A DNA stretch of 64,000 bases from an uncultured Gammaproteobacteria bacterium (GTDB lineage: Bacteria > Pseudomonadota > Gammaproteobacteria > UBA4575). The notes below the pieces were generated by a model. That model was not told the origin of the DNA and searched no databases. It was given only the letters and a program-made list of their open reading frames with translations. Position numbers and translations under genes: made by a program. Of the stretch, positions 3,219-61,667 are shown piece after piece. The stretch is from positions 1,849,712 through 1,913,711 of the forward strand of contig OX638335.1 of NCBI GenBank assembly GCA_951812785.1, given 5' to 3'. The stretch's first letter is position 1, and each line of letters opens with the position of its first letter.

Positions 3219-3290
3219 ATAATTATAGTAGTATCCAGTTAACAACTCTTTCGGATAGTAGTCCAAAAGAAAAGATTGATTTTTAATTCA

Positions 3291-3498
3291 GCAGTACAGG
3301 TGTCCACTTCTTAATTTAAAGAAGCTGGATTAAACAGGGAATCTGGTGAAATCCCAGAGCTGCCCCCGCAACGGTAATCAAGTATAAATAAACAACTGTG
3401 TCACTGCACATTAGTGTGGGAAGACTGTTTATTCGCAAGCTCAGCAATACAATATTGCAGGCAAGCAACTTGAGAGCCCGGAGACCGGCCTGTCACTG
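3291..3498 (+). promoter_or_regulatory. Cobalamin (B12) riboswitch aptamer upstream of btuB
   Basis: Core 'aacagggaatctggtgaaatcccagagctgcccccgcaacggtaa', 'gtcactg...gggaagac' and 'agcccggagaccggcctgt', with P1 acagg/cctgt. Downstream 'cttcctcct' (3546-3554) is complementary to the btuB SD 'aggag' (3631-3635). Confidence 0.88.
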
Positions 3499-3640
3499 AG
3501 CGGCAAATTGCGGTGGGCGATTCAGGCTGTTTAGACTTCACACTACTTCCTCCTGAATTTAAGAGGCATACCAGTCGGTGTGTTGTTTATGCATTCTATT
3601 GTCACTGCGTTTGCTCGTCATGTTCTAACTAGGAGAACAC

Positions 3641-5548
3641 ATGAGCTACTTACGCAACCTCGGTTTATTCACAGCACTACTTTGTTATTGCAGCACTAGT
3701 TTAGCCGAACCACTTCCCCCTATTTCAATTACGGCCAGCCGCATCGCAGTTCCTATAAATGAAGTTGCAGGTGCGATCACGGTGATTTCTAAGCAACAAA
3801 TTGAGAATCAAAATGCAGTTTATGCCTCGGACTTACTGCAAACAGTGCCAGGTTTAAACGTCAGCACACAAGGAAGCGCAGGTAGCATGACTCAAATACG
3901 CGTGCGTGGGGCCGAAGCAAATCATATTTTAGTGATCATTGATGGGATTGAAGTGAATGACCCAGCCAATTCATCTGAATTTAATTTTGCTCATTTACTC
4001 GCTGACAATATTGAGCGCATAGAGATACTAAGGGGGCCACAAAGTGCTTTATGGGGTAGTGATGCCTTGGCCGGCGTTATCAATATTACTACCTCCCGCG
4101 CAGATTCTGGCACGGAGTTCATCGCATCTAGTAGTTATGGGTCAGAAAACACCTATCACGGCGCGCTGAAGTACTTATTAGGCACTGAAACATTTAACCT
4201 CGTTCTGAATGGAAATTTTATTGACTCTGATGGTTTTAATACCGCGACCACAGGAAACGAACAAGATGGATACGACAACTCAACCTTAAATTTAAAATCT
4301 ACTTACCAAATAAATGATGCAATTAATGTTGGTATGAATTCTCGTTATACCAATGCTAGCAACGAATTTGACCCAGCACCTTTAGGTGTACCGGTTGATG
4401 GTTTTGGCAAAAATGATGTCGAACAAATTTATGCTCGTGGGTTTTTTGAGTTAAAACTCTTCAATGACGATTGGGTTCAACTTATAGAAGCCTCAATACT
4501 AAATACAAGCAACGATTCCACTGATGGAATATTTGGCAGGTCACAATCTGAGTCAACTAAAGAAAAATTTTCTTACCAGTCAACATTTACTTTACCTGAA
4601 TTAGAATCCGTACCACTTAAACAATCACTCACCTTCGCGCTGGAACGCGAGCAGGAACGATTTAGCCAGCAAGGTGCTTCTTTTCCTGGCTTCGACCCAA
4701 ATCAGCATCAGAAGATTACTAACTACAGCAGAATAGCAGAGTACAGAATTAAATTTCTTAAGCAGTGGGCGCTATCCGCTTCATTTCGTCATGATGATAA
4801 TGATGAATTTAGCAATCAAAACACTTATCAAATTGGGATTAATTATGTACATCCCTCGACACATACTAAAACCTATGTGACACATTCAACTGGCGCAAAG
4901 AATCCTACATTCACCGAATTATTTGGCTTTGCTCCGAACAATTTCGCTGGCAATCAAAATTTAAACACGGAAACTTCTGAAGCATGGGAAATTGGTTTAT
5001 CTCAAGATTTATTTGATAACCGTTTTCATTTCCAGGCTGCTCTTTTCTGGGAAGATTTGATTGATGAAATTCAGACAATTTTTCTCCCTACTTTTCAATC
5101 TACAGTAATCAATAACGAATCCCGTAGCGAACGTAATGGGTTAGAGCTATCAGTTCAAGGACAATTGAAAAACAACTTAACCGCGAGCGCGGCATATACT
5201 TATTTAGATGCCAGCGAACCAGACGCCTCTGGAAATAGTCGCACAGAAATAAGGCGACCAATTCACCAATGGTCGGGGCATGCGAATTACTCTTTTTTGG
5301 CCGACAAAGCCAATCTTAATGTTAGTATCAATCATATTGGCGACCGTAGAGATATAGATTTTAGCACTGGAAATAGACTGACTTTAGATGACTACACGCT
5401 GGTCAATATCGCAATGAATTATCAATATAACGATACTTTAAAAATGTTTGCACGCATTAACAATTTACTAGACGAGGAGTATCAAGATGCATTTGGTTTT
5501 GAGACAAGAGAGTTTTCCGGCTTAATCGGCCTCGAAATAAAATTATAG
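3641..5548 (+). CDS. btuB: TonB-dependent vitamin B12 outer-membrane receptor
   Basis: Signal peptide, plug domain (ITASR..VISKQQIE, IEILRGPQSALWGSDALAGVINI), C-terminal beta-barrel ending ..GLEIKL. Preceded by the B12 riboswitch. Confidence 0.88.
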   Translation: MSYLRNLGLFTALLCYCSTSLAEPLPPISITASRIAVPINEVAGAITVISKQQIENQNAVYASDLLQTVPGLNVSTQGSAGSMTQIRVRGAEANHILVIIDGIEVNDPANSSEFNFAHLLADNIERIEILRGPQSALWGSDALAGVINITTSRADSGTEFIASSSYGSENTYHGALKYLLGTETFNLVLNGNFIDSDGFNTATTGNEQDGYDNSTLNLKSTYQINDAINVGMNSRYTNASNEFDPAPLGVPVDGFGKNDVEQIYARGFFELKLFNDDWVQLIEASILNTSNDSTDGIFGRSQSESTKEKFSYQSTFTLPELESVPLKQSLTFALEREQERFSQQGASFPGFDPNQHQKITNYSRIAEYRIKFLKQWALSASFRHDDNDEFSNQNTYQIGINYVHPSTHTKTYVTHSTGAKNPTFTELFGFAPNNFAGNQNLNTETSEAWEIGLSQDLFDNRFHFQAALFWEDLIDEIQTIFLPTFQSTVINNESRSERNGLELSVQGQLKNNLTASAAYTYLDASEPDASGNSRTEIRRPIHQWSGHANYSFLADKANLNVSINHIGDRRDIDFSTGNRLTLDDYTLVNIAMNYQYNDTLKMFARINNLLDEEYQDAFGFETREFSGLIGLEIKL

Positions 5549-40521: not shown

Positions 40522-41157
40522 ATGAAATCTGCGGCGATCTCATTTAGCAAAACACTTGCTGTAATCGATGAAGACCGCTGCATTGGTTGCACGCTATGCA
40601 TCAAAGCCTGTCCATTCGACGCCATACTAGGGGCATCAAAACAACTACACAGTGTGATCAATCAATTCTGCACGGGTTGCAAACTATGCATTAACCCCTG
40701 TCCTGTTGATTGCATCTCAATGCAACCTAATCACGCATTACAGAAAATTGAACCTGTTACTCCAGACTTTAGTCAACATAAGGCTTGCGTTCATTGTAGT
40801 GATTGTATTCCTGCTTGCCCAAACAACTTAAACCCAGATTCCTTATACGCAAATATTCGCAGTAAACATTTCATCCTGGCCGAAAAAAATTCGCTAAATT
40901 CATGCACACAATGCGGTGAATGCAATCAGGTATGCCCCAGCAGTATCCCATTGTCACAGACTTTTACTTTCGGCATTAACATGCTGCAATACAAAACCGA
41001 CAAAAAAATCTTTACTCACGAAAGTAAGCAACGCGTTAATATTCGCAAACAACGACTAATACAGAAAAAAACTCAACAGCTGGATTTTTTATCCAGCAAT
41101 AAACAGAGGCTTGCAGATAAACTACAAGCACTTAAGAACTCAGCTTTAGAAAAATAA
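40522..41157 (+). CDS. 4Fe-4S dicluster ferredoxin, RnfB C-terminal-domain-like
   Basis: [36 protein letters not shown] and [12 protein letters not shown] cluster motifs. Directly upstream of nth. Confidence 0.72.
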
Positions 41158-41183: not shown

Positions 41184-41816
41184 GTGAACAAAACCAAACG
41201 CACAGAAATATTTAGTCGCTTACGCGAACTGAACCCGCACCCCACTACCGAACTAAACTTTAACAATGAATTTGAATTGCTGATTGCAGTAATTCTTTCT
41301 GCGCAGGCAACTGACGTTGGCGTTAATAAAGCCATTGGTCCACTTTACAAAGTTGCCAACACACCTGAGGCTATTTATAAGTTGGGTGAGAAAAAGCTAA
41401 AGACTTATGTTAAAACCATTGGCCTGTACAACACAAAAGCTAAGAATATTATTAAAACATGCAAGATTTTGATAGATGAGCATAATGGCCAGGTCCCTGA
41501 GAACCGAGAAGCATTAGAAGCTTTACCTGGAGTCGGTCGAAAAACAGCCAATGTGGTGTTGAATACAGTATTTGGGCATCCCACCATTGCAGTCGATACA
41601 CATATATATAGGGTGTCTAACAGAACAGGCATTGCACCAGGCAAGAATGTCATTGAAGTTGAGAAACGTCTGCTGCGCCTAGTTCCTGAAGAATTCAAAC
41701 GCGATGCCCATCATTGGCTGATACTTCATGGCCGCTACACCTGTATTGCACGCAACCCTAAATGCTTAAATTGTACAATACATGATCTATGCGAATTCAC
41801 TAAAAAATCTTCCTGA
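41184..41816 (+). CDS. nth: Endonuclease III
   Basis: HhH-GPD (LEALPGVGRKTANVVL), catalytic Lys/Asp region, C-terminal Cx6Cx2Cx5C cluster loop. GTG start. Confidence 0.95.
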   Translation: MNKTKRTEIFSRLRELNPHPTTELNFNNEFELLIAVILSAQATDVGVNKAIGPLYKVANTPEAIYKLGEKKLKTYVKTIGLYNTKAKNIIKTCKILIDEHNGQVPENREALEALPGVGRKTANVVLNTVFGHPTIAVDTHIYRVSNRTGIAPGKNVIEVEKRLLRLVPEEFKRDAHHWLILHGRYTCIARNPKCLNCTIHDLCEFTKKSS

Positions 41817-42032
41817 TCAAAAACATATCAGCATCATCCGATAGAGTGGGAACTCTATTATTTTTATTACCTCTAAAAAATTGCAACCATTTTACCTTAC
41901 TTATAGAAAAGTAATAAATAACGCTAAATAATTTGTAATATAAGCTCTATACCCAAGGTCTTTATATTCAGAAAGTAATGATCCAAAAATAATTTTAAGT
42001 AATACCTCAACAAACAAGTACGGAGAACGTAA

Positions 42033-42341
42033 ATGTCTAAGAAATTTGAACTTAAGCCAATCGCTGCGGCAGTCGGTGCTGCATTAACTGCAAGTGTTAT
42101 CGCTATGCCTACCGCTAATGCTGACGCAAACCCATTTGATCTAACAGAGCTTTCTTCGGGCTACATGGTTGCAGGCAACCACGAAGGTAAGTGCGGTGAA
42201 GGCAAATGTGGCGAAAGCAAAGCCGGTGCTAAGAAAATGAAAGACGGTAAATGCGGTGAAGGTAAGTGTGGTGAAGGTAAGTGTGGTGAAGGTAAGTGTG
42301 GTGAAGGTAAGTGTGGTGAAGGTAAGTGCGGCGAGAAGTAA
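42033..42341 (+). CDS. Secreted Cys-repeat RiPP precursor, HvfA-like (8 x GKCGE)
   Basis: Sec signal peptide ending ..PTANA/DANPF, then a conserved-looking NPF..LSSGY segment, then GKCGEGKCGE ... (GKCGE)x6. Good SD (ggaga). Every Cys lies in a repeat. Confidence 0.85.
   Translation: MSKKFELKPIAAAVGAALTASVIAMPTANADANPFDLTELSSGYMVAGNHEGKCGEGKCGESKAGAKKMKDGKCGEGKCGEGKCGEGKCGEGKCGEGKCGEK
42186..42335 (+). repeat. 15-bp coding tandem repeat (ggtaagtgtggtgaa): 2 copies at 42186-42215, 6 copies at 42246-42335
   Basis: Counted directly. The four units at 42261-42320 are nucleotide-identical. The flanking units differ at synonymous positions. Confidence 0.95.
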
Positions 42342-42423
42342 TTCCCGGCAACTAAGCTCCACTGGTATCAGGATTGATACTGACATACTAGATTTAAATT
42401 TACATTGAATCTAGAACACTGAA

Positions 42424-42457
42424 ACGGCGGGATCCTAATAGGACCCGCCGTTTTTTT
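42424..42457 (+). terminator. Rho-independent terminator after the precursor gene
   Basis: acggcggg(a)tcc-taata-gga-cccgccgt stem-loop followed by TTTTTTT. Confidence 0.85.
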
Positions 42458-42507
42458 ACCCATAACATATATACTAAACATCAAACATAAGATGTTGGAG
42501 AGTACTA

Positions 42508-44007
42508 ATGGAAATGCATGAATTATCGAGATTCGCATTAACAACCCTGGAGATTCTAGCGTTCCTATTTATATTTATTGTTGGCGCCAGCATTATTATT
42601 GTGGCGGTTTTATATGTTATTGACCGCTCTCAAACCAAACAAGCTATTCGACATAACTATCCTGTCGTAGGTCGTTTTCGTTATTTCTTTGAACATATGG
42701 GTGAATTTTTTCGCCAATATTTCTTCGCTATGGATCGCGAAGAATTACCGTTTAATCGCGCTGAACGATCCTGGGTCTATCGCGCATCGAAAAATATCGA
42801 CTCTACTATTGCATTTGGATCAACGCGTGATCTTTACAAGCCTGGCACCGTTATTTTTGGTAACTGTCCATTCCCTAAGCTAGGTATAGATTCTGCTGAG
42901 CCTGAAGAAATCACGATAGGCCAGTATTGTAATCAGCCTTATAGCACTCGTTCTATCTATAATATTTCCGGAATGAGCTTTGGAGCAATTTCTAAACCCG
43001 CAGTACTGGCACTTTCAAACGGAGCACGTGAAGCAGGCTGCTGGATGAACACCGGTGAAGGCGGATTATCTCCTTATCACCTAGAAGGTGGCGCAGATAT
43101 TGTTTTCCAAATTGGTACTGCCAAATATGGCGTACGTGACCATGAAGGAAATTTAAATACAGAAAAATTAAAAGCAGTCGCTGATCATAAACAAGTAAAA
43201 ATGTTTGAGCTCAAACTGGCACAAGGTGCCAAACCTGGTAAAGGCGGTATTTTACCTGGTGCTAAAGTCAATGAAGAGATTGCCAATATCCGCGGTATTC
43301 CTGTCGGCACCGACTCAATTAGCCCTAACAGACATGTAGATATCAATTCAGTGGATGAACTACTCAACATGCTTAAAACTATCCGGGAAACAACCGGTAA
43401 ACCGGCAGGATTCAAAACGGTTATTGGTGCTAGAGATTGGTTAGATGATTTATTCAAAAAAATCAGTGAACGCAGCGTTGAAGATGCGCCTGACTTCATC
43501 ACATTAGACAGCGGCGATGGCGGAACAGGCGCAGCACCCATGAGTTTAATGGATAATGTTGGTTTACCTATCAAGCAGAGCTTGCCTCTACTGATAAACA
43601 AACTGAAACAATATGGTTTACGTGAGCGCATAAAAGTCATCTCTTCAGGAAAATTAGTGACGCCAGTAGAAGTTGCTTGGGCGCTTGCAACTGGCGCAGA
43701 CTTCATCACTTCAGCACGTGGTTTTATGTTCTCAATAGGTTGTATTCAAGCCTTGCAATGCAATAAAAACACCTGTCCGACGGGTATCACTACCCACGAC
43801 AAAGACCTACAAAGTGGATTAAACCCAGAAAATAAAGCAGAGCGTGTAAGGAATTACATCAAAAACATGGTCTATGAGGTAGGTGTCATTGCTCACTCTT
43901 GTGGTGTCACAGAACCAAGGCAATTACGCAGGAAGCATGCCTACATTGTTAATCCGCAAGGCAGATCAATACCGCTAGATGAACTTTATTCAAGCGAAAC
44001 CACTTAA
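42508..44007 (+). CDS. Membrane-anchored FMN-binding glutamate-synthase-family protein (GltB FMN-domain homologue)
   Basis: N-terminal TM (LEILAFLFIFIVGASIIIVAVLYVI). ISGMSFGAIS, NTGEGGLSPYH, KLAQGAKPGKGGILPGAKV and LDSGDGGTGAAP motifs of the GltS FMN domain. Confidence 0.88.
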   Translation: MEMHELSRFALTTLEILAFLFIFIVGASIIIVAVLYVIDRSQTKQAIRHNYPVVGRFRYFFEHMGEFFRQYFFAMDREELPFNRAERSWVYRASKNIDSTIAFGSTRDLYKPGTVIFGNCPFPKLGIDSAEPEEITIGQYCNQPYSTRSIYNISGMSFGAISKPAVLALSNGAREAGCWMNTGEGGLSPYHLEGGADIVFQIGTAKYGVRDHEGNLNTEKLKAVADHKQVKMFELKLAQGAKPGKGGILPGAKVNEEIANIRGIPVGTDSISPNRHVDINSVDELLNMLKTIRETTGKPAGFKTVIGARDWLDDLFKKISERSVEDAPDFITLDSGDGGTGAAPMSLMDNVGLPIKQSLPLLINKLKQYGLRERIKVISSGKLVTPVEVAWALATGADFITSARGFMFSIGCIQALQCNKNTCPTGITTHDKDLQSGLNPENKAERVRNYIKNMVYEVGVIAHSCGVTEPRQLRRKHAYIVNPQGRSIPLDELYSSETT

Positions 44008-44045
44008 TGTACACAATAAAAATATACCAGAACTTAGGAGTAAAC

Positions 44046-44654
44046 ATGATGGGAATATTTAATTTCATAAATTCGATTTTTGACAAACTACGGGTACTAG
44101 ATTTTTTAGGACCTCTCGCTTTGCGCCTTTATCTAGCACCTGTTTTCTGGATGGCTGGCGCCAACAAAATTGACTTTTCAACCTTTATGCCATTTGAGTC
44201 AACCGTTAGTTGGTTCGGCAACCCCGAATGGGGACTTGGTTTACCTCTCCCCACTTTGATGGCTTTCCTTGCTGGGTGGACAGAAGTGCTGGGTGCAATA
44301 TTTCTACTCATCGGTTTTGGTGTGCGCTGGATTTCCATCCCATTAATGATCACCATGTTAGTGGCGATTTTCTCTGTACATATTAGTAACGGGTGGCTAG
44401 CAATCTCATCTGGCTCAGGAATATTTGCGACAGAGCGAACCATAGAAGCAGTAGAACGTTTAGGTATAGCAAAAGATATTTTAAAAGAACACGGAAATTA
44501 TTTATGGTTGACTGAAAATGGTAGCTTAGTTGTACTAAATAACGGCATTGAATTTGCGACTACCTACTTCATTATGTTGTTAGTATTATTTTTTATTGGT
44601 GCTGGGAAATTCTTCAGCCTTGATTATTACTTAAACTTCATTAACAAAAAATAG
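44046..44654 (+). CDS. DoxX-family membrane protein
   Basis: 4 TM helices, DoxX-like LALRLYLAPVFWMAGANK motif. Strong SD 'aggag' upstream of the ATG at 44046. The ORF-track start at 44007 is less likely. Confidence 0.8.
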   Translation: MMGIFNFINSIFDKLRVLDFLGPLALRLYLAPVFWMAGANKIDFSTFMPFESTVSWFGNPEWGLGLPLPTLMAFLAGWTEVLGAIFLLIGFGVRWISIPLMITMLVAIFSVHISNGWLAISSGSGIFATERTIEAVERLGIAKDILKEHGNYLWLTENGSLVVLNNGIEFATTYFIMLLVLFFIGAGKFFSLDYYLNFINKK

Positions 44655-44709
44655 GATCTATAAAAACGGCGGAAGCAATCAAAATAATAGCTTCTAAAAA
44701 GAGAATATT

Positions 44710-45567
44710 ATGTCTAAGGAATACTGTGTAAATGGTGCTGGCCTAGGTCTTAGGCGTGGACACATGATGGAAGAGCTTCTGGAGGTTAATCCCGCACAAG
44801 TTCAGTTCATGGAAGTTGCTCCCGAAAATTGGATTGGCATGGGTGGCCGTTTAGGTAAACGCTTTCGCGAATATACTGAACGTTATGACTTTGTTACGCA
44901 CGGCTTATCTTTATCTATCGGTGGACCAACGCCGTTAGACTTAGCACTAGTCAAAGACATTAAAACGTTTATGCAACAGCATAATATTCTCAAGTACACC
45001 GAACATTTAACTTACTGTTCTGATCAAGGCCACTTGTACGATTTAATGCCAATCCCTTTCACCACTGAAGCAGTACATTACGTAGCAGACCGAATTAAGC
45101 AAGTACAAGACATACTCGGCCAACGCATTGCCATGGAAAATGCGTCTTGCTACGCAACACCTGGCAAAGAAATGGAAGAAATTGACTTTCTTAAAGCCGT
45201 ACTTGAAGAAGCAGACTGTGAACTTCTGTTGGATGTTAATAACATTTACGTGAATTCAGTGAATCACAAGTATGACCCTATTACATTTTTACAATCTCTT
45301 CCTAAAGAACGCATTACATATTGCCATATCGCAGGACACTACAATGAAGCAGAAGACTTGATTGTAGACACACATGGTGCGGATGTGATTGATCCAGTAT
45401 GGGCAATATTGGACAAAGCGTACGAAGCATTTGGTGTGTTTCCCACGCTATTGGAAAGAGACTTCAATATCCCCGAAATACCAGTATTAATGAAAGAGAT
45501 CGATCAAATTTGCCAGCTACAACAAAAATGGAGTTGCTCAAACAATACGGTGAGCGCTCATGCCTGA
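44710..45567 (+). CDS. DUF692 / MNIO (MbnB-like multinuclear non-haem iron oxidative) enzyme, HvfB/BufB-like
   Basis: GLGLRRGH.., FMEVAPENW, HGLSLSIGG, TEHLTYC, DLMPIPFT, AMENASCY, LLDVNNIYVNSVNH and CHIAGH. This is the DUF692 motif series. Confidence 0.88.
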   Translation: MSKEYCVNGAGLGLRRGHMMEELLEVNPAQVQFMEVAPENWIGMGGRLGKRFREYTERYDFVTHGLSLSIGGPTPLDLALVKDIKTFMQQHNILKYTEHLTYCSDQGHLYDLMPIPFTTEAVHYVADRIKQVQDILGQRIAMENASCYATPGKEMEEIDFLKAVLEEADCELLLDVNNIYVNSVNHKYDPITFLQSLPKERITYCHIAGHYNEAEDLIVDTHGADVIDPVWAILDKAYEAFGVFPTLLERDFNIPEIPVLMKEIDQICQLQQKWSCSNNTVSAHA

Positions 45568-46345
45568 GGCTGAACAAAAATTTAAAGAGGTGCAGTATGA
45601 ATTTACTGCACACTTAAGAGATCCAGATAACAACCCTGCGCCATCAGAAATTGAAGATCGACGTTTAGAAATTTATCGGGGTTTATTATTTCGAAACGTG
45701 CAAGGCTTTTTAGCCAGCGGATTTCCTGTGACTCGCAAGCTTTATAGTGATGATGCTTGGCATAGAATGGTTAGAGATTTTTTCTCCAACCATCAAAGTC
45801 ATTCCCCTTATTTTAGGGATATTTCTAAAGAATTCCTTATCTACCTAAACGAAGAACGTAAACCACAACCTGAAGATCCTAATTTTTTATTAGAGCTTAC
45901 TCACTACGAGTGGTTAGAAATAATGTTGTCGTTTATTGATACCGAAATAAAGCTAGATGGCATCAATCAGGATGGCAATTTACTTAAGCAAATACCTGTG
46001 TTGTCGCCGTTAACACGACTTAATCGTTACAATTACCCTGTCCATAAAATCAAGCCTGATTTTCAACCTAAGACCGCACCAGAACAACCAACATTCATTC
46101 TGGTTTATCGAGATCAACAAGATAAAGTGGGGTTTATGGAGATGAATCCTATGACAGCCCGTTTAGTAGAGCTAGTAGCGGGCAATGAAACTCAAACTGG
46201 CGAGGAAATTTTATTATCCATCGCCAAGGAAATTCCTTCACTCTCACAGGACGTCATCATGCATGGAGGACACACAACGCTTACTCAACTACGCGAGAAA
46301 GACATCGTGTTAGGAACAAAAATAGAAACTAAAGCAGAATCGTAA
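45560..46345 (+). CDS. DUF2063-domain RiPP maturation partner, HvfC/BufC-like
   Basis: F..HLRDP, RLEIYRGLLFRNVQGFLASGFPVTRKL, SHSPYFRDISKEF. Overlaps the DUF692 gene by 8 nt. Confidence 0.82.
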   Translation: MPEAEQKFKEVQYEFTAHLRDPDNNPAPSEIEDRRLEIYRGLLFRNVQGFLASGFPVTRKLYSDDAWHRMVRDFFSNHQSHSPYFRDISKEFLIYLNEERKPQPEDPNFLLELTHYEWLEIMLSFIDTEIKLDGINQDGNLLKQIPVLSPLTRLNRYNYPVHKIKPDFQPKTAPEQPTFILVYRDQQDKVGFMEMNPMTARLVELVAGNETQTGEEILLSIAKEIPSLSQDVIMHGGHTTLTQLREKDIVLGTKIETKAES

Positions 46346-46347
46346 GC

Positions 46348-47364
46348 TTATAATCTTGCAATGATATTATCAGCAAACTCCATAGTATTCACTGTCCCAC
46401 CAAGATCACCCGTCAAACCTTCACCACTGGTTAGCTGCGCATCTATTGCTTCTCTAAGTCGAGTCGCTTTATCAGCTTCACTTACGTGATCTAGCATTAA
46501 AGCCGAGGCTAACATCAAAGCAGTTGGGTTAGCAATTTTCTTTCCGGCGATATCAGGCGCAGAACCGTGTACGGCTTCAAATATAGAAGCATCTTTACCA
46601 ATATTTGCTGCCGGCGCTAAGCCTAAGCCCCCCACCAACCCTGCTATCTCATCTGAAAGAATATCGCCAAACATATTAGTCGTCATCAACACATCAAATT
46701 GATTTGGATTAAGCACCAATTGCATTGCACAGTTATCAACAATGCGCTCTTCAATTTCCAGCTGACCCTCGTATTTTTTACCAACTTCCATTGCAATTTC
46801 TAAAAATAAACCCGTGAGCTTTTTAAGAATATTAGCCTTATGAACAATAATGACTTTTTTACGCTTGTTTTTAATGGCCCAATTAAATGCAAACTCTACA
46901 AAGCGAGTACACCCATATCGAGTAATAATTCCTGTTGCTTCTGCAACCGCCTTAGGGTCATCCGCAATAGGAATGTAATGCTCTACCCCTACGTACAAAC
47001 CTTCTAGATTTTCACGAATCAGTACGATATCTACATTTTCAAATCGCCCGCCCTGTAAAAAAGTTCGTGCAGGGCGAACATTTGCAAATAACTCAAACTC
47101 TTCTCGCAAACGTACGTTAATGGAACGAAAACCACTGCCCACTGGCGTAGTCAAAGGTCCTTTAAGGGCTAATTTAGTGCGACGAATACTATTTAGTGTT
47201 TTTTCTGGTAACGGATCTCCGCATACAGTTTCAGCAGCAACTCCCGCTAATTGCTCTTCCCATTCAAAGGGTGACTCTAATGCATCCAACACTTTTAGAG
47301 TAGCTTTAACAATCTCTGGGCCAATACCATCACCTGGAATTAACGTAGTAGGTATTTTTTCCAT
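46348..47364 (-). CDS. NAD-type isocitrate dehydrogenase (beta-decarboxylating dehydrogenase family)
   Basis: 338 aa. TLIPGDGIGPEI, RSINVRLREEFELFANVRP, NMFGDILSDE, GSAPDIAGK. Substrate call (isocitrate rather than isopropylmalate or tartrate) is from overall resemblance only. Confidence 0.72.
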   Translation of the reverse strand: MEKIPTTLIPGDGIGPEIVKATLKVLDALESPFEWEEQLAGVAAETVCGDPLPEKTLNSIRRTKLALKGPLTTPVGSGFRSINVRLREEFELFANVRPARTFLQGGRFENVDIVLIRENLEGLYVGVEHYIPIADDPKAVAEATGIITRYGCTRFVEFAFNWAIKNKRKKVIIVHKANILKKLTGLFLEIAMEVGKKYEGQLEIEERIVDNCAMQLVLNPNQFDVLMTTNMFGDILSDEIAGLVGGLGLAPAANIGKDASIFEAVHGSAPDIAGKKIANPTALMLASALMLDHVSEADKATRLREAIDAQLTSGEGLTGDLGGTVNTMEFADNIIARL

Positions 47365-57373: not shown

Positions 57374-57706
57374 GTGCCCGGCGGTGATCGACTCGACGAA
57401 GAAAAAAGAAGAAGAACTAAAGAGTGGATGGCTGAGCGAAGAAAGATTTTTGCAGAGACGCAAGCAGAAGGTTTGGAGCTCGGCTTAAGTCGAAAAGAAG
57501 CTAATAAATTAGTGTATGAAAAAATAAGCGAGCCCAGCGAAACAGGCAAAGGAATTGCCGAAGCCCTGGTGACAGCGGGAAGTGCAATGACCGGCGGAAC
57601 CGTCGGCGCAATTGCTGGTGGGATTTTAGGAGTGACTGAATCTGTGATCGGAAATTTAACAGATGAAGGATTTTCATATCGCGACGCGCGCAAAAGAGAG
57701 TCTTAA
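57374..57706 (+). CDS. Hypothetical protein with glycine-zipper segment, stop overlapping the nrdA start
   Basis: GTG-start ORF. Charged N-half, then GGTVGAIAGGILG (GxxxGxxxGxxxG). TAATG overlap with nrdA. Confidence 0.4.
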   Translation: MPGGDRLDEEKRRRTKEWMAERRKIFAETQAEGLELGLSRKEANKLVYEKISEPSETGKGIAEALVTAGSAMTGGTVGAIAGGILGVTESVIGNLTDEGFSYRDARKRES

Positions 57707-60558
57707 TGCAACCTAATAATACAACTACACCCCTCGCAGATGTCCCCAGCGAGCTAGAATTACAGTCTACAGCATCTAATCACTATAGAGTAATCCGCCG
57801 AAACGGAAAAGTCACTCGCTTTAATCGCGACAAAATCACCATTGCAGTCACTAAGGCATTCCTCGCAGTCGAGGGAGACGCAGCAGCGTCATCAACGCGT
57901 GTTCATGACACTGTCGCTCAGCTAACACTGAGCGTAGAAGGTGCGCTGACTCGCAATCAGCACAATGGCGGCACGTTCCATATCGAGGATATTCAGGATC
58001 AAGTCGAGCTTGCACTCATGAGAGCTGGCCACCATCAAGTGGCTCGTGATTACGTGCTATACCGTGAGCAACGTGCATTAGAGCGCACTGAAAAGCAACA
58101 GGTCGCGCAACAAACAGCGGACGGCATCAGCATTAATGTGACGGATGCGGCTGGCAACGTAACACCACTTGATATTCAACGAATGAGCACGGTTGTAGAC
58201 GATGCCTGTCACCATCTAGACAATGTCTCAGCACAACTCATTATTAATGATACGCTCCGCAACTTATATGACGGTGTGCCAGAGCGCGATGTCTCTACAG
58301 CAGTCACGATGAGCGCACGCGCACTCATCGAACGTGAGCCTAATTACACCTATGTTGCAGCACGTTTGCTGCTTGATCACCTTCGTTGCGAAGCACTTAG
58401 CCATATTTTTGGCACACCTAGCCGAGCGACTCAGGCAGACATGACAACTGAGTATGCCATTTACTTTGAAAACTATATTGAAGCCGCCGCCGCGCGTGGG
58501 TTAATCGATGCGAGATTAGCGCAAGAGTACGATCTAAAAGCACTCGGCACTGCACTGGACCCTGCACGTGATTACAAGTTTACTTACCTAGGTCTACAAA
58601 CGCTGTACGACCGCTACTTTATTCATACTCAAGAAGGCACTCGCATAGAATTGCCGCAGGCTTTCTTCATGCGCGTGGCGATGGGCTTAGCGATTAATGA
58701 AGTAGACCGCGAAACACGTACTATTGAGTTTTATCGCTTACTGTCTTCTTTTGATTTTATGAGTTCTACTCCAACATTATTTAATGCAGGCACATTACGA
58801 CCCCAGTTATCGTCTTGCTATCTGACCACGGTGCCCGATAATCTGAGCGGCATCTTTGACTCAATTAAAGATGATGCCATGCTATCTAAGTTTGCTGGTG
58901 GCCTGGGCAATGACTGGTCACGTGTTCGCGCCATGGGGTCACACATCAAGGGCACTAACGGGAAATCTCAAGGCGTTGTGCCTTTTCTGAAGGTTGCCAA
59001 CGATACTGCGGTGGCAGTCAACCAGGGCGGCAAGCGCAAAGGGGCGATGTGTGCTTACCTTGAAACCTGGCACCTGGATATTGAAGAGTTCTTAGACTTA
59101 CGCAAGAACACGGGTGATGATCGCCGCCGTACTCATGATATGAATACGGCGCACTGGATTCCTGATGTATTCATGAAGCGTGTGAGTCAACAAGGTGAGT
59201 GGACCTTGTTCTCACCGGATGACACTCCTGACTTACATGGCTTATATGGTGCAGCGTTTGAAACGCGTTACTGTGAGTACGAGCACCTCGCAGACGCCGG
59301 CGAAGTGACACACTATAAACGCGTTCCTGCGGTTGATTTATGGCGCAAGATGTTAAGCATGTTGTACGAAACAGGGCATCCATGGATCACATTTAAAGAT
59401 CCTTGCAACATCCGTTCGCCACAGCGTCATAGCGGGACAGTGCATTCATCTAACCTGTGTACTGAAATAACCTTGAATACATCAGATGATGAAATCGCTG
59501 TATGTAATTTGGGCTCGGTCAACTTGGCGGCGCATATTACTGAGCACGGGTTAGACCAAGAAAAGTTAGCAAAGACGATTAACACCGCTTTGCGCATGCT
59601 CGATAACGTGATTGACATCAACTATTACAGTGTTGATAAAGCACGTGATTCAAACATGCGCCACCGCCCGATCGGTCTGGGCTTAATGGGTTTCCAAGAT
59701 GCGCTGTATCAGTTACGTATTCCTTACGCAAGTGAGCAAGCCGTTGAGTTTGCTGATCTCTCGATGGAGATGATCAGCTACTACGCGATTCACGCCTCAA
59801 CTGATCTTGCGGTAGAGCGTGGCACTTACGTCTCTTACGAAGGCTCGTTATGGTCTCAAGGTGTGTTGCCGATCGACTCTGTTGAGTTGTTAGAAAAAGA
59901 ACGCGGTGGAGACTTAACAGTAGATCGCTCGACAACGTTGGATTGGGACACATTACGCACACGCGTGCAGTCTGTTGGGATGCGCCATTCAAACACCATG
60001 GCCATTGCACCCACCGCGACAATATCGAATATTTGCGGTGTCACTCAGAGTATTGAGCCGACATACCAAAACCTGTTTGTTAAGTCGAACTTGTCTGGTG
60101 AGTTCACCGTCTCTAACCCCTATCTCATTGCTGACCTTAAGCGACACAACTTATGGGATAACGTGATGATCAATGATCTTAAATACTATGACGGTAGCGT
60201 ACAACACATTGATCGTGTCCCTGATGACATTAAAAACATGTATCGCACGGCGTTTGAAATCGATCCGCGCTGGTTAATTGAAGCGGCATCGCGCCGCCAA
60301 AAATGGATCGATCAAGCACAATCCCTTAATCTGTATATGGCTGAACCCTCCGGGCAAAAGATGGACAACTTGTACACATTAGCCTGGGTACGTGGATTAA
60401 AAACCACGTATTACTTACGTTCTATGGGTGCAACTCACGTTGAAAAGAGCACCATGCAACATCACCAAGAAAACAAGCTCAACGCCGTGCAACAACGCGC
60501 ACTGAGCACACCAAGCGCATGTTCATTGCTTGACTCTGATTGCGATGCTTGTGAGTAA
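57706..60558 (+). CDS. nrdA: Class Ia ribonucleotide reductase alpha subunit (long, Pseudomonas-type N-terminus with extra ATP-cone)
   Basis: 950 aa. YRVIRRNGKVTRFNRDKITIAVTKAFL ATP-cone, active-site SNLCTEI and NLGSVNL, C-terminal CxxC-type tail (..SDCDACE). Confidence 0.96.
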   Translation: MQPNNTTTPLADVPSELELQSTASNHYRVIRRNGKVTRFNRDKITIAVTKAFLAVEGDAAASSTRVHDTVAQLTLSVEGALTRNQHNGGTFHIEDIQDQVELALMRAGHHQVARDYVLYREQRALERTEKQQVAQQTADGISINVTDAAGNVTPLDIQRMSTVVDDACHHLDNVSAQLIINDTLRNLYDGVPERDVSTAVTMSARALIEREPNYTYVAARLLLDHLRCEALSHIFGTPSRATQADMTTEYAIYFENYIEAAAARGLIDARLAQEYDLKALGTALDPARDYKFTYLGLQTLYDRYFIHTQEGTRIELPQAFFMRVAMGLAINEVDRETRTIEFYRLLSSFDFMSSTPTLFNAGTLRPQLSSCYLTTVPDNLSGIFDSIKDDAMLSKFAGGLGNDWSRVRAMGSHIKGTNGKSQGVVPFLKVANDTAVAVNQGGKRKGAMCAYLETWHLDIEEFLDLRKNTGDDRRRTHDMNTAHWIPDVFMKRVSQQGEWTLFSPDDTPDLHGLYGAAFETRYCEYEHLADAGEVTHYKRVPAVDLWRKMLSMLYETGHPWITFKDPCNIRSPQRHSGTVHSSNLCTEITLNTSDDEIAVCNLGSVNLAAHITEHGLDQEKLAKTINTALRMLDNVIDINYYSVDKARDSNMRHRPIGLGLMGFQDALYQLRIPYASEQAVEFADLSMEMISYYAIHASTDLAVERGTYVSYEGSLWSQGVLPIDSVELLEKERGGDLTVDRSTTLDWDTLRTRVQSVGMRHSNTMAIAPTATISNICGVTQSIEPTYQNLFVKSNLSGEFTVSNPYLIADLKRHNLWDNVMINDLKYYDGSVQHIDRVPDDIKNMYRTAFEIDPRWLIEAASRRQKWIDQAQSLNLYMAEPSGQKMDNLYTLAWVRGLKTTYYLRSMGATHVEKSTMQHHQENKLNAVQQRALSTPSACSLLDSDCDACE

Positions 60559-60620
60559 TTAAGCGCACTTATCGATATTGATAGATATCGATCAACTTTG
60601 AATAAATTGATAGGAAAAAA

Positions 60621-61667
60621 ATGAAAAATATGAAAGATATCGACATCGGTGCAGCGCGGATTCGCGTTGACGATAAACAGATTATTAACTGTCATGCTGA
60701 TCTTAACCAGTTAGTCCCATTCAAATACGAGTGGGCGTGGCAAAAGTATCTCGATGGGTGCGCCAACCACTGGATGCCTCAAGAAATCAACATGACACAA
60801 GACATCGCGCTTTGGAAAGACCCGGATGGGCTCACCGAGGATGAACGGACGGTTATTCAACGCAACTTAGGTTTCTTCTCAACCGCAGATTCACTCGTGG
60901 CGAACAACTTAGTGTTAGCGGTCTATCAACACATTACCAACCCTGAATGCCGTCAGTACTTGTTGCGCCAAGCGTTTGAAGAAGCGGTACATACCCATGC
61001 TTATCAATACTGCATTGAGTCGTTGGGGTTAGATGAAGGCGAAGTCTTTAACATGTATCGTGAAATCCCCTCTGTTGCGAAGAAAGCAGAATGGGCATTG
61101 CCGTTCACACAAAGCTTGAGCGATCCGCACTTTTCAACAGGCACACCCGACATGGATCAACGTTTATTGCGTGATCTCATTGCATTCTACGTGGTGTTTG
61201 AAGGCATCTTCTTTTATGTTGGCTTTGTCCAAGTCCTGTCGATGGGGCGGCGTAACAAAATGACTGGGACTGCTGAGCAATTCCAATATATTTTACGTGA
61301 TGAATCGATGCACATGAATTTTGGCATTGATGTCATCAATCAAATTAAAGTAGAAAATCCGCATCTTTGGAGCAGCGCGTTTCAACAAGAGATGAGTGAG
61401 CTGATTGCGAACGCCGTTGAGCTTGAGATTCAATATGCACACGACACGATGCCGCGCGGCATTCTTGGCTTAAACGCAACCATGTTTACCGAATACCTTC
61501 AGTTTATTGCCAACCGCCGTTGCGCTCAAATTGGTTTAGCAGAACAGTATGCGGGTGCTACTAACCCATTCCCATGGATGTCTGAAGTGTTAGATTTGAA
61601 GAAAGAAAAGAACTTCTTTGAGACGCGTGTCACTGAATATCAAACAGGCGGAGCACTGGTCTGGTAA
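60621..61667 (+). CDS. nrdB: Class Ia ribonucleotide reductase beta subunit
   Basis: FFSTADSLV (Asp ligand), [10 protein letters not shown] (Glu-x-x-His plus the radical Tyr four residues on), DESMH. Confidence 0.95.

Follow-up and report, generated by a model that had tools for sequence, protein, structure and literature searches.

The 5-thiooxazole metallophores (oxazolin, bufferins, fontiphorin, and gonophorin) are a newly recognized and widespread form of copper defense, and in Haemophilus influenzae one of them acts as a virulence factor. The H. influenzae hvf operon, the source of oxazolin, has four genes, which encode a DoxX-family protein (HvfX), an EGKCG-repeat precursor (HvfA), HvfB, and HvfC (Manley et al. 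2024, PMC11252979). Buf1 clusters, such as Caulobacter bufABCD, encode a DUF2282 precursor, a multinuclear iron oxidase (MNIO), a DUF2063 protein, and DoxX and yield a copper-binding 5-thiooxazole product (PMC11626156). DoxX is encoded in ca. 68% of MNIO-PME1/5-thiooxazole metallophore clusters (PMC13097082, Table S1). Caulobacter can do without it for both modification and copper protection (PMC11626156), and the function of DoxX/HvfX is uncharacterized (PMC11626156, PMC11252979; bioRxiv 10.64898/2026.07.17.739211). Here we describe an hvf-type cluster that carries an additional gene for a membrane-anchored flavoprotein related to the flavin mononucleotide (FMN) domain of glutamate synthase (GltS). 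The cluster lies in a stretch of 64,000 nucleotides, referred to as the window, from an uncultured Gammaproteobacteria bacterium (GenBank assembly GCA_951812785.1, contig OX638335.1, positions 1,849,712 to 1,913,711). Surveys of related loci showed that adjacency of this flavoprotein gene to such clusters is recurrent, far above chance, and specifically to DoxX.

An hvf-type cluster with an additional flavoprotein gene

In the list of open reading frames (ORFs), five genes on the plus strand occupy positions 42033 to 46345 of the window, between nth (41184 to 41816) and the convergent icd (46348 to 47364). The features of this region are as follows.

41817 to 42032, plus strand: upstream region between nth and hvfA, with conserved blocks and an inverted repeat
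42033 to 42341, plus strand: hvfA-type precursor gene, 102 amino acids (ORF; Sec signal peptide by inspection, NPFxLxxLSSGY segment, eight GKCGE units)
42246 to 42328, plus strand: 15-nt tandem repeat GGTAAGTGTGGTGAA, 5.5 copies, encoding GKCGE units
42421 to 42461, plus strand: putative intrinsic terminator or attenuator that separates the precursor gene from the enzyme genes (folding energy and position kept in relatives)
42508 to 44007, plus strand: the extra gene, encoding a membrane-anchored flavoprotein of the GltS FMN-domain type, 499 amino acids (ORF, PF01645)
44046 to 44654 (alternative longest-ORF start, 44007), plus strand: hvfX, DoxX-family membrane protein (NF050144, PF07681)
44710 to 45567, plus strand: hvfB, MNIO (DUF692) peptide maturase, 285 amino acids (NF003818, PF05114)
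45560 to 46345, plus strand: hvfC, partner protein with DUF2063 and the recognition element (RRE) of ribosomally synthesized and posttranslationally modified peptide (RiPP) systems, 261 amino acids (NF050145, PF09836 and PF22106)

The flavoprotein gene shares its orientation with hvfX, hvfB, and hvfC, and the four are closely packed. There is no space for a terminator between the later genes, and hvfB and hvfC overlap by 8 nt (45560 to 45567). The longest DoxX ORF, from 44007, overlaps the flavoprotein stop codon. We prefer the start at 44046, which leaves a gap of 38 nt, because a Shine-Dalgarno sequence (AGGAG, 44036 to 44040) sits before this ATG. A preliminary description of the locus, made from the sequence alone, had given the same gap, which proved the better start call, and all of the features that it named were recovered at their positions with the ORF list, hidden Markov models (HMMs), and RNA folding.

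Judged by HMM matches, four of the five genes are those of an Hvf-type system (the EGKCG-repeat "oxazolin" pathway), HvfA at the level of the repeat domain only. The hvfB product scored 438.2 bits with the HvfB family model NF003818 (cutoff, 360) over residues 9 to 271 of 285 and matched PF05114 at 9e-102; its score with the BufB model, 258.9 bits, was under the cutoff of 310. HvfB residues H64, H99, E143, D175, N178, H206, D220, H222, and E249 do not vary among 11 homologues. This set of His, Asp, Glu, and Asn residues presumably corresponds to the iron ligands of MbnB/HvfB. HvfC scored 305.3 bits with NF050145 (cutoff, 142) and matched both PF09836 and PF22106, and HvfX scored 222.8 bits with NF050144 (cutoff, 80) and matched PF07681 at 2.8e-20. 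The precursor scored 49.7 bits with NF050137 (KCGExKCG_twice; cutoff, 19.5) but only 42.5 bits with the H. influenzae HvfA equivalog model NF050188 (cutoff, 95). By these scores it is a member of the HvfA/Buf_EGKCG family and not an HvfA equivalog. The Hvf-type, DUF692, DUF2063, and DoxX assignments of the preliminary description thus held when HMMs were run, with HvfB, HvfC, HvfX, and the HvfA repeat domain all above their cutoffs.

The cluster resembles the H. influenzae operon in its EGKCG-repeat precursor, HvfB, HvfC, and HvfX. However, the H. influenzae operon lacks the flavoprotein, and the order in the window is precursor, terminator, flavoprotein, hvfX, hvfB, and hvfC. With Buf1 clusters it shares the MNIO/DUF2063/DoxX core and, by prediction, a copper-binding 5-thiooxazole product, whereas its precursor family and its MNIO (under the BufB cutoff) differ and the characterized Buf1 clusters have no flavoprotein. 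A PF01645 gene inside the operon departs from the composition described for hvf and buf clusters, which is a precursor, an MNIO, a DUF2063 protein, optional DoxX, and regulators. The product chemistry assumed in the preliminary description, oxazolone/thioamide groups, is outdated because the modification has been reassigned to 5-thiooxazole (PMC13097082; bioRxiv 10.64898/2026.07.17.739211); the expectation of -4 Da per Cys holds after the reassignment.

Two systematic surveys of MNIO clusters report DoxX, DUF2282, and regulators, along with a few molybdopterin-oxidoreductase or ferric-reductase domains (PMC12452194, PMC13097082), and PF01645 is not in the co-occurrence tables of either survey. 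The EGKCG clusters with oxidored_molybd or ferric-reductase domains (Antoine et al. 2025, PMC12452194) are similar in that accessory membrane or redox modules occur in a minority of clusters. However, the window flavoprotein is of another family, and neither the text nor the supplementary files of that study mention PF01645. Many of the layouts found here would escape that survey because its rule for unrelated genes was a distance of no more than 10 bp from a core gene (PMC12452194). Together with the four-gene H. influenzae operon (PMC11252979), these tables agree with the earlier impression that the flavoprotein falls outside the described layouts. Literature searches on DoxX with glutamate synthase gave irrelevant matches only, those on glutamate synthase with DUF692/DUF2063 gave no relevant overlap, and those on YerD and family names gave noise. 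The one match that looked relevant, the N-methylglutamate synthase MgsABC, is a different paralogue. As far as we have found, the locus is a known kind of system with a recurrent component that has not been described in the literature.

PF01645, the FMN domain of glutamate synthase, was the sole match of the flavoprotein (3.5e-87). Its best PDB matches were GltS large subunits (1e-32), and it scored 127.9 bits with the GltB equivalog model against a cutoff of 1047. Like GltB (PDB 1EA0, 1OFD, and 7MFM), it has the PF01645 TIM-barrel FMN domain with the KxxQGAKPG loop, the DGGTGA motif, and the C-x5-C-x4-C [3Fe-4S] motif. In contrast to GltB, it lacks the amidotransferase, central, and beta-helix domains and carries an N-terminal membrane helix. 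Its domain content indicates that it is not a glutamate synthase, an enzyme with a four-domain architecture (amidotransferase, central, FMN, and beta-helix).

Conservation is strong within the family. None of K236, Q239, K242, K245, R262, C412, C418, and C423 varies among 77 orthologues, in which the KxxQGAKPG loop, the Arg aligned with R992 of GltS, DGGTGA, and the C-x5-C-x4-C motif are invariant or nearly so. The residues matching GltS Q969, K972, and R992 are kept; K972 and R992 contact 2-oxoglutarate in GltS. Two changes relative to GltS, E975K and Q978I (GltS numbering), are invariant across the same orthologues. The orthologues bear a hydrophobic N-terminal segment, which in the window protein is an N-terminal membrane helix with a conserved juxtamembrane segment (residues 40 to 125, approximately). 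The net charge is -1 before the helix and +4 after it, a distribution that suggests that the catalytic domain faces the cytoplasm. An exhaustive search of representatives found 626 representative clusters of the family at E <= 1e-30. On this evidence these membrane-anchored flavin/iron-sulfur enzymes are a family of their own, and a strongly conserved one. An exact sequence look-up of the window flavoprotein gave no record. No gene for a GltD-like reductase was present within the cluster or the flanking ORFs that were read (38.4 to 50.7 kb); no screen for such a gene was made in the remainder of the window.

Recurrent adjacency of the flavoprotein gene to DoxX

The neighborhoods were surveyed from two sides. 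A metagenome scan with an HvfB alignment gave 80 hvf loci (61 to 71% identity). A scan for the flavoprotein, with one genome per species, gave 80 orthologue loci (63 to 92% identity), in which neighbors were identified with tblastn and from an unbiased clustering of every neighboring ORF, the ORFs in the loci being simple calls. The preliminary description had guessed at a link through DoxX, and both surveys show the flavoprotein beside DoxX.

The flavoprotein gene was present in 10 of the 80 metagenomic hvf loci. All were among the 39 loci with DoxX, compared with none of the 41 without it (Fisher p = 4e-4), and among DoxX loci with enough flanking sequence the proportion was about 10 of 30. 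The gene stood directly beside DoxX in 9 of the 10, in four gene orders, with DoxX either before hvfB or after hvfC. Genes for a thiamine pyrophosphate (TPP) enzyme, or for a TPP enzyme plus an aldehyde dehydrogenase (ALDH), were also inside the hvf cluster in L104 and L142. On a tree of DoxX sequences, the short subtype (ca. 150 amino acids) was nearly always paired with the flavoprotein, and paired and unpaired members of the long HvfX subtype were interspersed.

From the flavoprotein side, the commonest neighbor within 10 kb was a TPP enzyme of the acetolactate-synthase-like type (PRK08322; 31 of 80 loci), followed by an ALDH (27 of 80), DoxX (21 of 80), and an MNIO (18 of 80). The best solved relatives of the TPP enzyme are labeled acetolactate synthase. 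Among the loci with at least 5 kb on each side, DoxX was found in 15 of 55 and an MNIO in 14 of 55. DoxX was the immediate co-directional neighbor of the flavoprotein, upstream or downstream, in about 16 loci, and in loci of the SUP05 type the gap between the two genes ranged from -4 to +13 nt. Linkage to MNIO/DoxX was spread over at least 7 clades of a neighbor-joining tree of the flavoprotein loci, and the flavoprotein accompanied two unrelated precursor families, EGKCG and DUF2282. The preliminary description had raised the case that adjacency might be no more frequent than expected by chance. If a 3-Mb genome has one or two MNIO genes, chance predicts ca. 1% adjacency per locus; on this basis 18 of 80 has P < 1e-16, or ca. 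1e-4 when the linkage is reduced to just 7 independent clades. Adjacency far exceeds chance. The arrangements were as follows.

L001 to L004: window layout
L032 (HTCC5015): EGKCG-MNIO-GltS-DoxX-HvfC, with the pair inserted between hvfB and hvfC
L006: MNIO-HvfC-DoxX-GltS
L017, L022, L034, L036, and L042 (SUP05/Thioglobus): DUF2282-rhodanese-BufB-DUF2063-DoxX-GltS-TPP-ALDH, co-directional, gaps of -8 to +90 nt, annotations confirmed
L009, L011, and L012 (Thiodiazotropha): Buf1 cluster divergent from TPP-GltS
L010 and L014: DoxX-GltS-TPP-ALDH

The Buf1 clusters of SUP05/Thioglobus and Thiodiazotropha thus adjoin the same flavoprotein family as the hvf cluster of the window. No MNIO gene was found in reach of the pair in L010 (ca. 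5.7 kb upstream and ca. 4.2 kb downstream) or within 10 kb in L014. The SUP05/Thioglobus string (for example, L022 7340 to 14486) contains a short DoxX, and a gene for a YHS-domain protein is nearby. Its combination of rhodanese and DoxX recalls the SseA-DoxX complex of Mycobacterium tuberculosis. In that organism (DoxX-SseA-SodA), as in the thiosulfate:quinone oxidoreductase DoxDA of Acidianus, a DoxX/DoxD membrane protein is combined with a soluble or anchored redox enzyme. The SUP05 loci are like the DoxX-SseA systems in having a rhodanese within the same operon, whereas the partner in the window is a GltS-type flavoprotein, a partner not yet described for DoxX (for citations on DoxDA and DoxX-SseA-SodA, see PMC11252979).

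Seven further HvfB homologues (69 to 80% identity) were looked up, picked solely for their long contigs. The order [hvfA]-GltS-DoxX-HvfB-HvfC was found in four of the seven (L082, L083, L085, and L088), and the flavoprotein gene was absent in three (L081, L086, and L087). L083 has an unrelated genome context and adjoins a Cu-ATPase gene, and L085 has divergent TPP and ALDH genes.

Three states were found at the nth-icd site. The arrangement hvfA-GltS-hvfXBC occurs in the window (41184 to 47364) and in L001 to L004, and L082 shares the upstream side only. In L081 (6691 to 9636), whose HvfB is 80% identical, hvfA-hvfXBC stands without the flavoprotein, and no remnant of the flavoprotein gene was detected at E <= 1e-3. 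In L005 (1390 to 6792) the flavoprotein (74% identical) stands without hvf, whose position is taken by unrelated membrane-protein ORFs. Because these three states exist, neither component strictly needs the other.

A second MNIO-DUF2063 pair adjoins the flavoprotein gene in L041 (7119 to 8854), L044 (7161 to 8830), and L012 (11577 to 13313), besides a complete hvf or buf cluster a few kilobases away. In L041 and L044 this second pair has an upstream ORF of 152 to 172 amino acids.

Possible roles of the flavoprotein

We give about even odds (a probability near 0.5) to the reading that the flavoprotein is an accessory, DoxX-coupled membrane redox module rather than a peptide-tailoring enzyme. 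The locus as a whole is an Hvf-type cluster, predicted to make an EGKCG-repeat metallophore whose Cys residues become 5-thiooxazoles. HvfA would be made with a Sec signal, HvfB, the MNIO, and its recognition partner HvfC would convert the Cys residues in the cytoplasm, and the modified peptide would be exported and bind copper. The flavoprotein gene would be co-transcribed with hvfX, hvfB, and hvfC, and its conserved partner would be DoxX, not the peptide or the MNIO. Facing the cytoplasm, the flavoprotein might oxidize or reduce a substrate of the 2-oxo acid or amino acid type, and its FMN and [3Fe-4S] cluster would connect that reaction, one electron at a time, with DoxX and the quinone pool, probably in the direction from substrate to quinone. 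In many other genomes a TPP decarboxylase-like enzyme and an ALDH, genes for which are not present in the window, would join the pair and process the carbon skeleton. Such a module may have been recruited repeatedly into 5-thiooxazole metallophore operons and would be dispensable for the modification itself.

Several points weigh against a DoxX-coupled module. About 58 of the 80 flavoprotein loci have neither a DoxX nor an MNIO gene within 10 kb, 70 of the 80 metagenomic hvf loci have no flavoprotein, and flavoprotein and hvf are found apart at the same nth-icd site (L005 and L081). A DoxX-GltS fusion is absent from 168 loci and from the ten longest family representatives, whose extensions are GreA/Rnk, MFS, or without a Pfam match. 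In both surveys, marine Gammaproteobacteria and relatives of the window HvfB are overrepresented, and the samples are not phylogenetically independent. FMN and [3Fe-4S] centers of the GltS type are beyond the reducing power of quinol, and for this reason only the substrate-to-quinone direction is plausible. A complex of DoxX with the flavoprotein is a proposal drawn from gene neighborhoods.

A broader version, which we regard as doubtful, is that DoxX and the flavoprotein, in many genomes together with the TPP decarboxylase and the ALDH, form an unrecognized electron-transfer module that links amino or 2-oxo acid oxidation in the cytoplasm to the membrane or periplasm and could keep thiooxazole or thiol groups and copper reduced. 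If this were true, it would provide a function for the DoxX genes in about two thirds of MNIO-PME1 clusters. If the link were merely co-regulation, it would give a useful annotation rule with little mechanistic weight. That DoxX is repeatedly paired, within operons, with a flavin/iron-sulfur enzyme offers a first testable clue to the role of DoxX and places a large uncharacterized flavoprotein family in a functional context.

It is also conceivable, although unlikely, that the flavoprotein is an independent metabolic enzyme for a glutamate/2-oxoglutarate-type substrate, often acting alongside a TPP decarboxylase and an ALDH and mechanistically unconnected to DoxX and the peptide. Genes for copper or oxidative-stress responses would then merely share its location or its regulation. 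One such role could be that of a back-up for a copper-sensitive glutamate synthase, and copper inactivates glutamate synthase (GOGAT) in Escherichia coli. An independent enzyme would be consistent with the predominance of the TPP enzyme and ALDH among its neighbors, the retention of the equivalents of K972 and R992, the flavoprotein standing alone at the nth-icd site in L005, and the dispensability of DoxX for bufferin function (PMC11626156). However, such an enzyme would not be expected to be inserted in hvf operons, in L032 even between hvfB and hvfC, or to sit beside DoxX at whichever end of the cluster DoxX occupies, as it does in 9 of 10 metagenomic hvf loci. Its absence from all 41 hvf loci without DoxX and the translational coupling of DoxX and GltS in the SUP05 loci, where the genes overlap or have a gap of 0 to 13 nt, also argue against independence.

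The preliminary description proposed that the flavoprotein supplies electrons, and it could be the physiological reductase of the MNIO iron cofactor. This proposal is attractive because HvfBC depends in vitro on a reductant (dithiothreitol or ascorbate); it is active in a mixed-valent state, and its natural reductant is not known (bioRxiv 10.64898/2026.07.17.739211). A [3Fe-4S] cluster carries electrons one at a time, the catalytic domain probably lies in the cytoplasm, where HvfBC act, and the gene appears to be co-transcribed with hvfB and hvfC. Nevertheless, such a role seems improbable, because adjacency tracks DoxX and not HvfB or HvfC, and the DoxX-GltS pair is retained in L010 and L014 with no MNIO found nearby. 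Furthermore, many functional hvf and buf clusters, including those of H. influenzae and Caulobacter, have no flavoprotein, and L081 has the same cluster as the window without it.

A tailoring enzyme that makes an extra modification on HvfA or its thiooxazoles, the other role suggested in the preliminary description and one for which operon position is the sole support, is very improbable, since the gene tracks DoxX rather than precursor or MNIO, accompanies two unrelated precursor families (EGKCG and DUF2282), encodes a highly conserved GltS active site of the small-molecule type, lies mostly outside RiPP loci, and varies in presence among near-identical clusters, as in L081, where hvf occurs without it.

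The precursor, its flanking regions, and other features of the window

The 102-amino-acid translation of the precursor contains exactly 8 Cys residues, each within a GKCGE unit. The 15-nt tandem repeat (97% match) covers part of these units, and precursor length ranges from 97 to 122 amino acids among the close relatives L001 to L004. The near-perfect repeat and the length differences suggest that the number of metallophore repeats varies between close relatives. By inspection, the N terminus consists of MSKKFELK, a positively charged n-region, followed by a hydrophobic core and PTANA|DA, with an A-N-A cleavage motif. Just past this predicted signal-peptidase site is the segment NPFxLxxLSSGY (residues 33 to 44; 42129 to 42164), in which N33, P34, F35, L40, S42, G43, and Y44 are invariant in an alignment of 8 HvfA-type homologues. 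This segment is a candidate for, and probably is, the recognition segment for HvfC, in which case it would stay on the exported peptide.

An RNA hairpin at 42421 to 42454, starting 80 nt past the precursor stop codon, has a folding energy of -23.7 kcal/mol (z = -6.8; 0 of 200 shuffles fold as well) and is followed by U7. A hairpin and T-run with other stem sequences occur at the same position in eight relatives (L001 to L004, L082, L088, L096, and L097), and because this position is kept, the hairpin is likely a real attenuator between the precursor and the enzyme genes.

Alignment of the window with L001 to L004, L081, and L082 revealed conserved blocks upstream of hvfA. An inverted repeat in this region, ACCTTA-N7-(T)AAGGT at 41894 to 41912, resembles CueR/MerR-type dyads. 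It is exact only in L001 (9229 to 9247), L002 (8290 to 8308), and L003 (9364 to 9382), and its frequency in the window is not above chance (2 matches versus 1.74 expected). We therefore rejected this palindrome as a sign of copper regulation, as it is lineage-restricted and not above chance in the window.

The other annotated genes of the window are housekeeping genes. Between metG and nth there is a solitary gene for a poly-ferredoxin of the RnfB type (40522 to 41157, plus strand), and L087 has a full rnf operon in its place; the solitary gene is perhaps what is left of an rnf-nth operon. At 3281 to 3507 on the plus strand, a cobalamin riboswitch (RF00174, 104.8 bits) lies directly upstream of a TonB-dependent receptor gene (3641 to 5548, plus strand), an ordinary BtuB-type arrangement. 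The locally higher G+C content at 57706 to 61667 is due to the genes for the large and small subunits of a class I ribonucleotide reductase, which occupy this interval on the plus strand.

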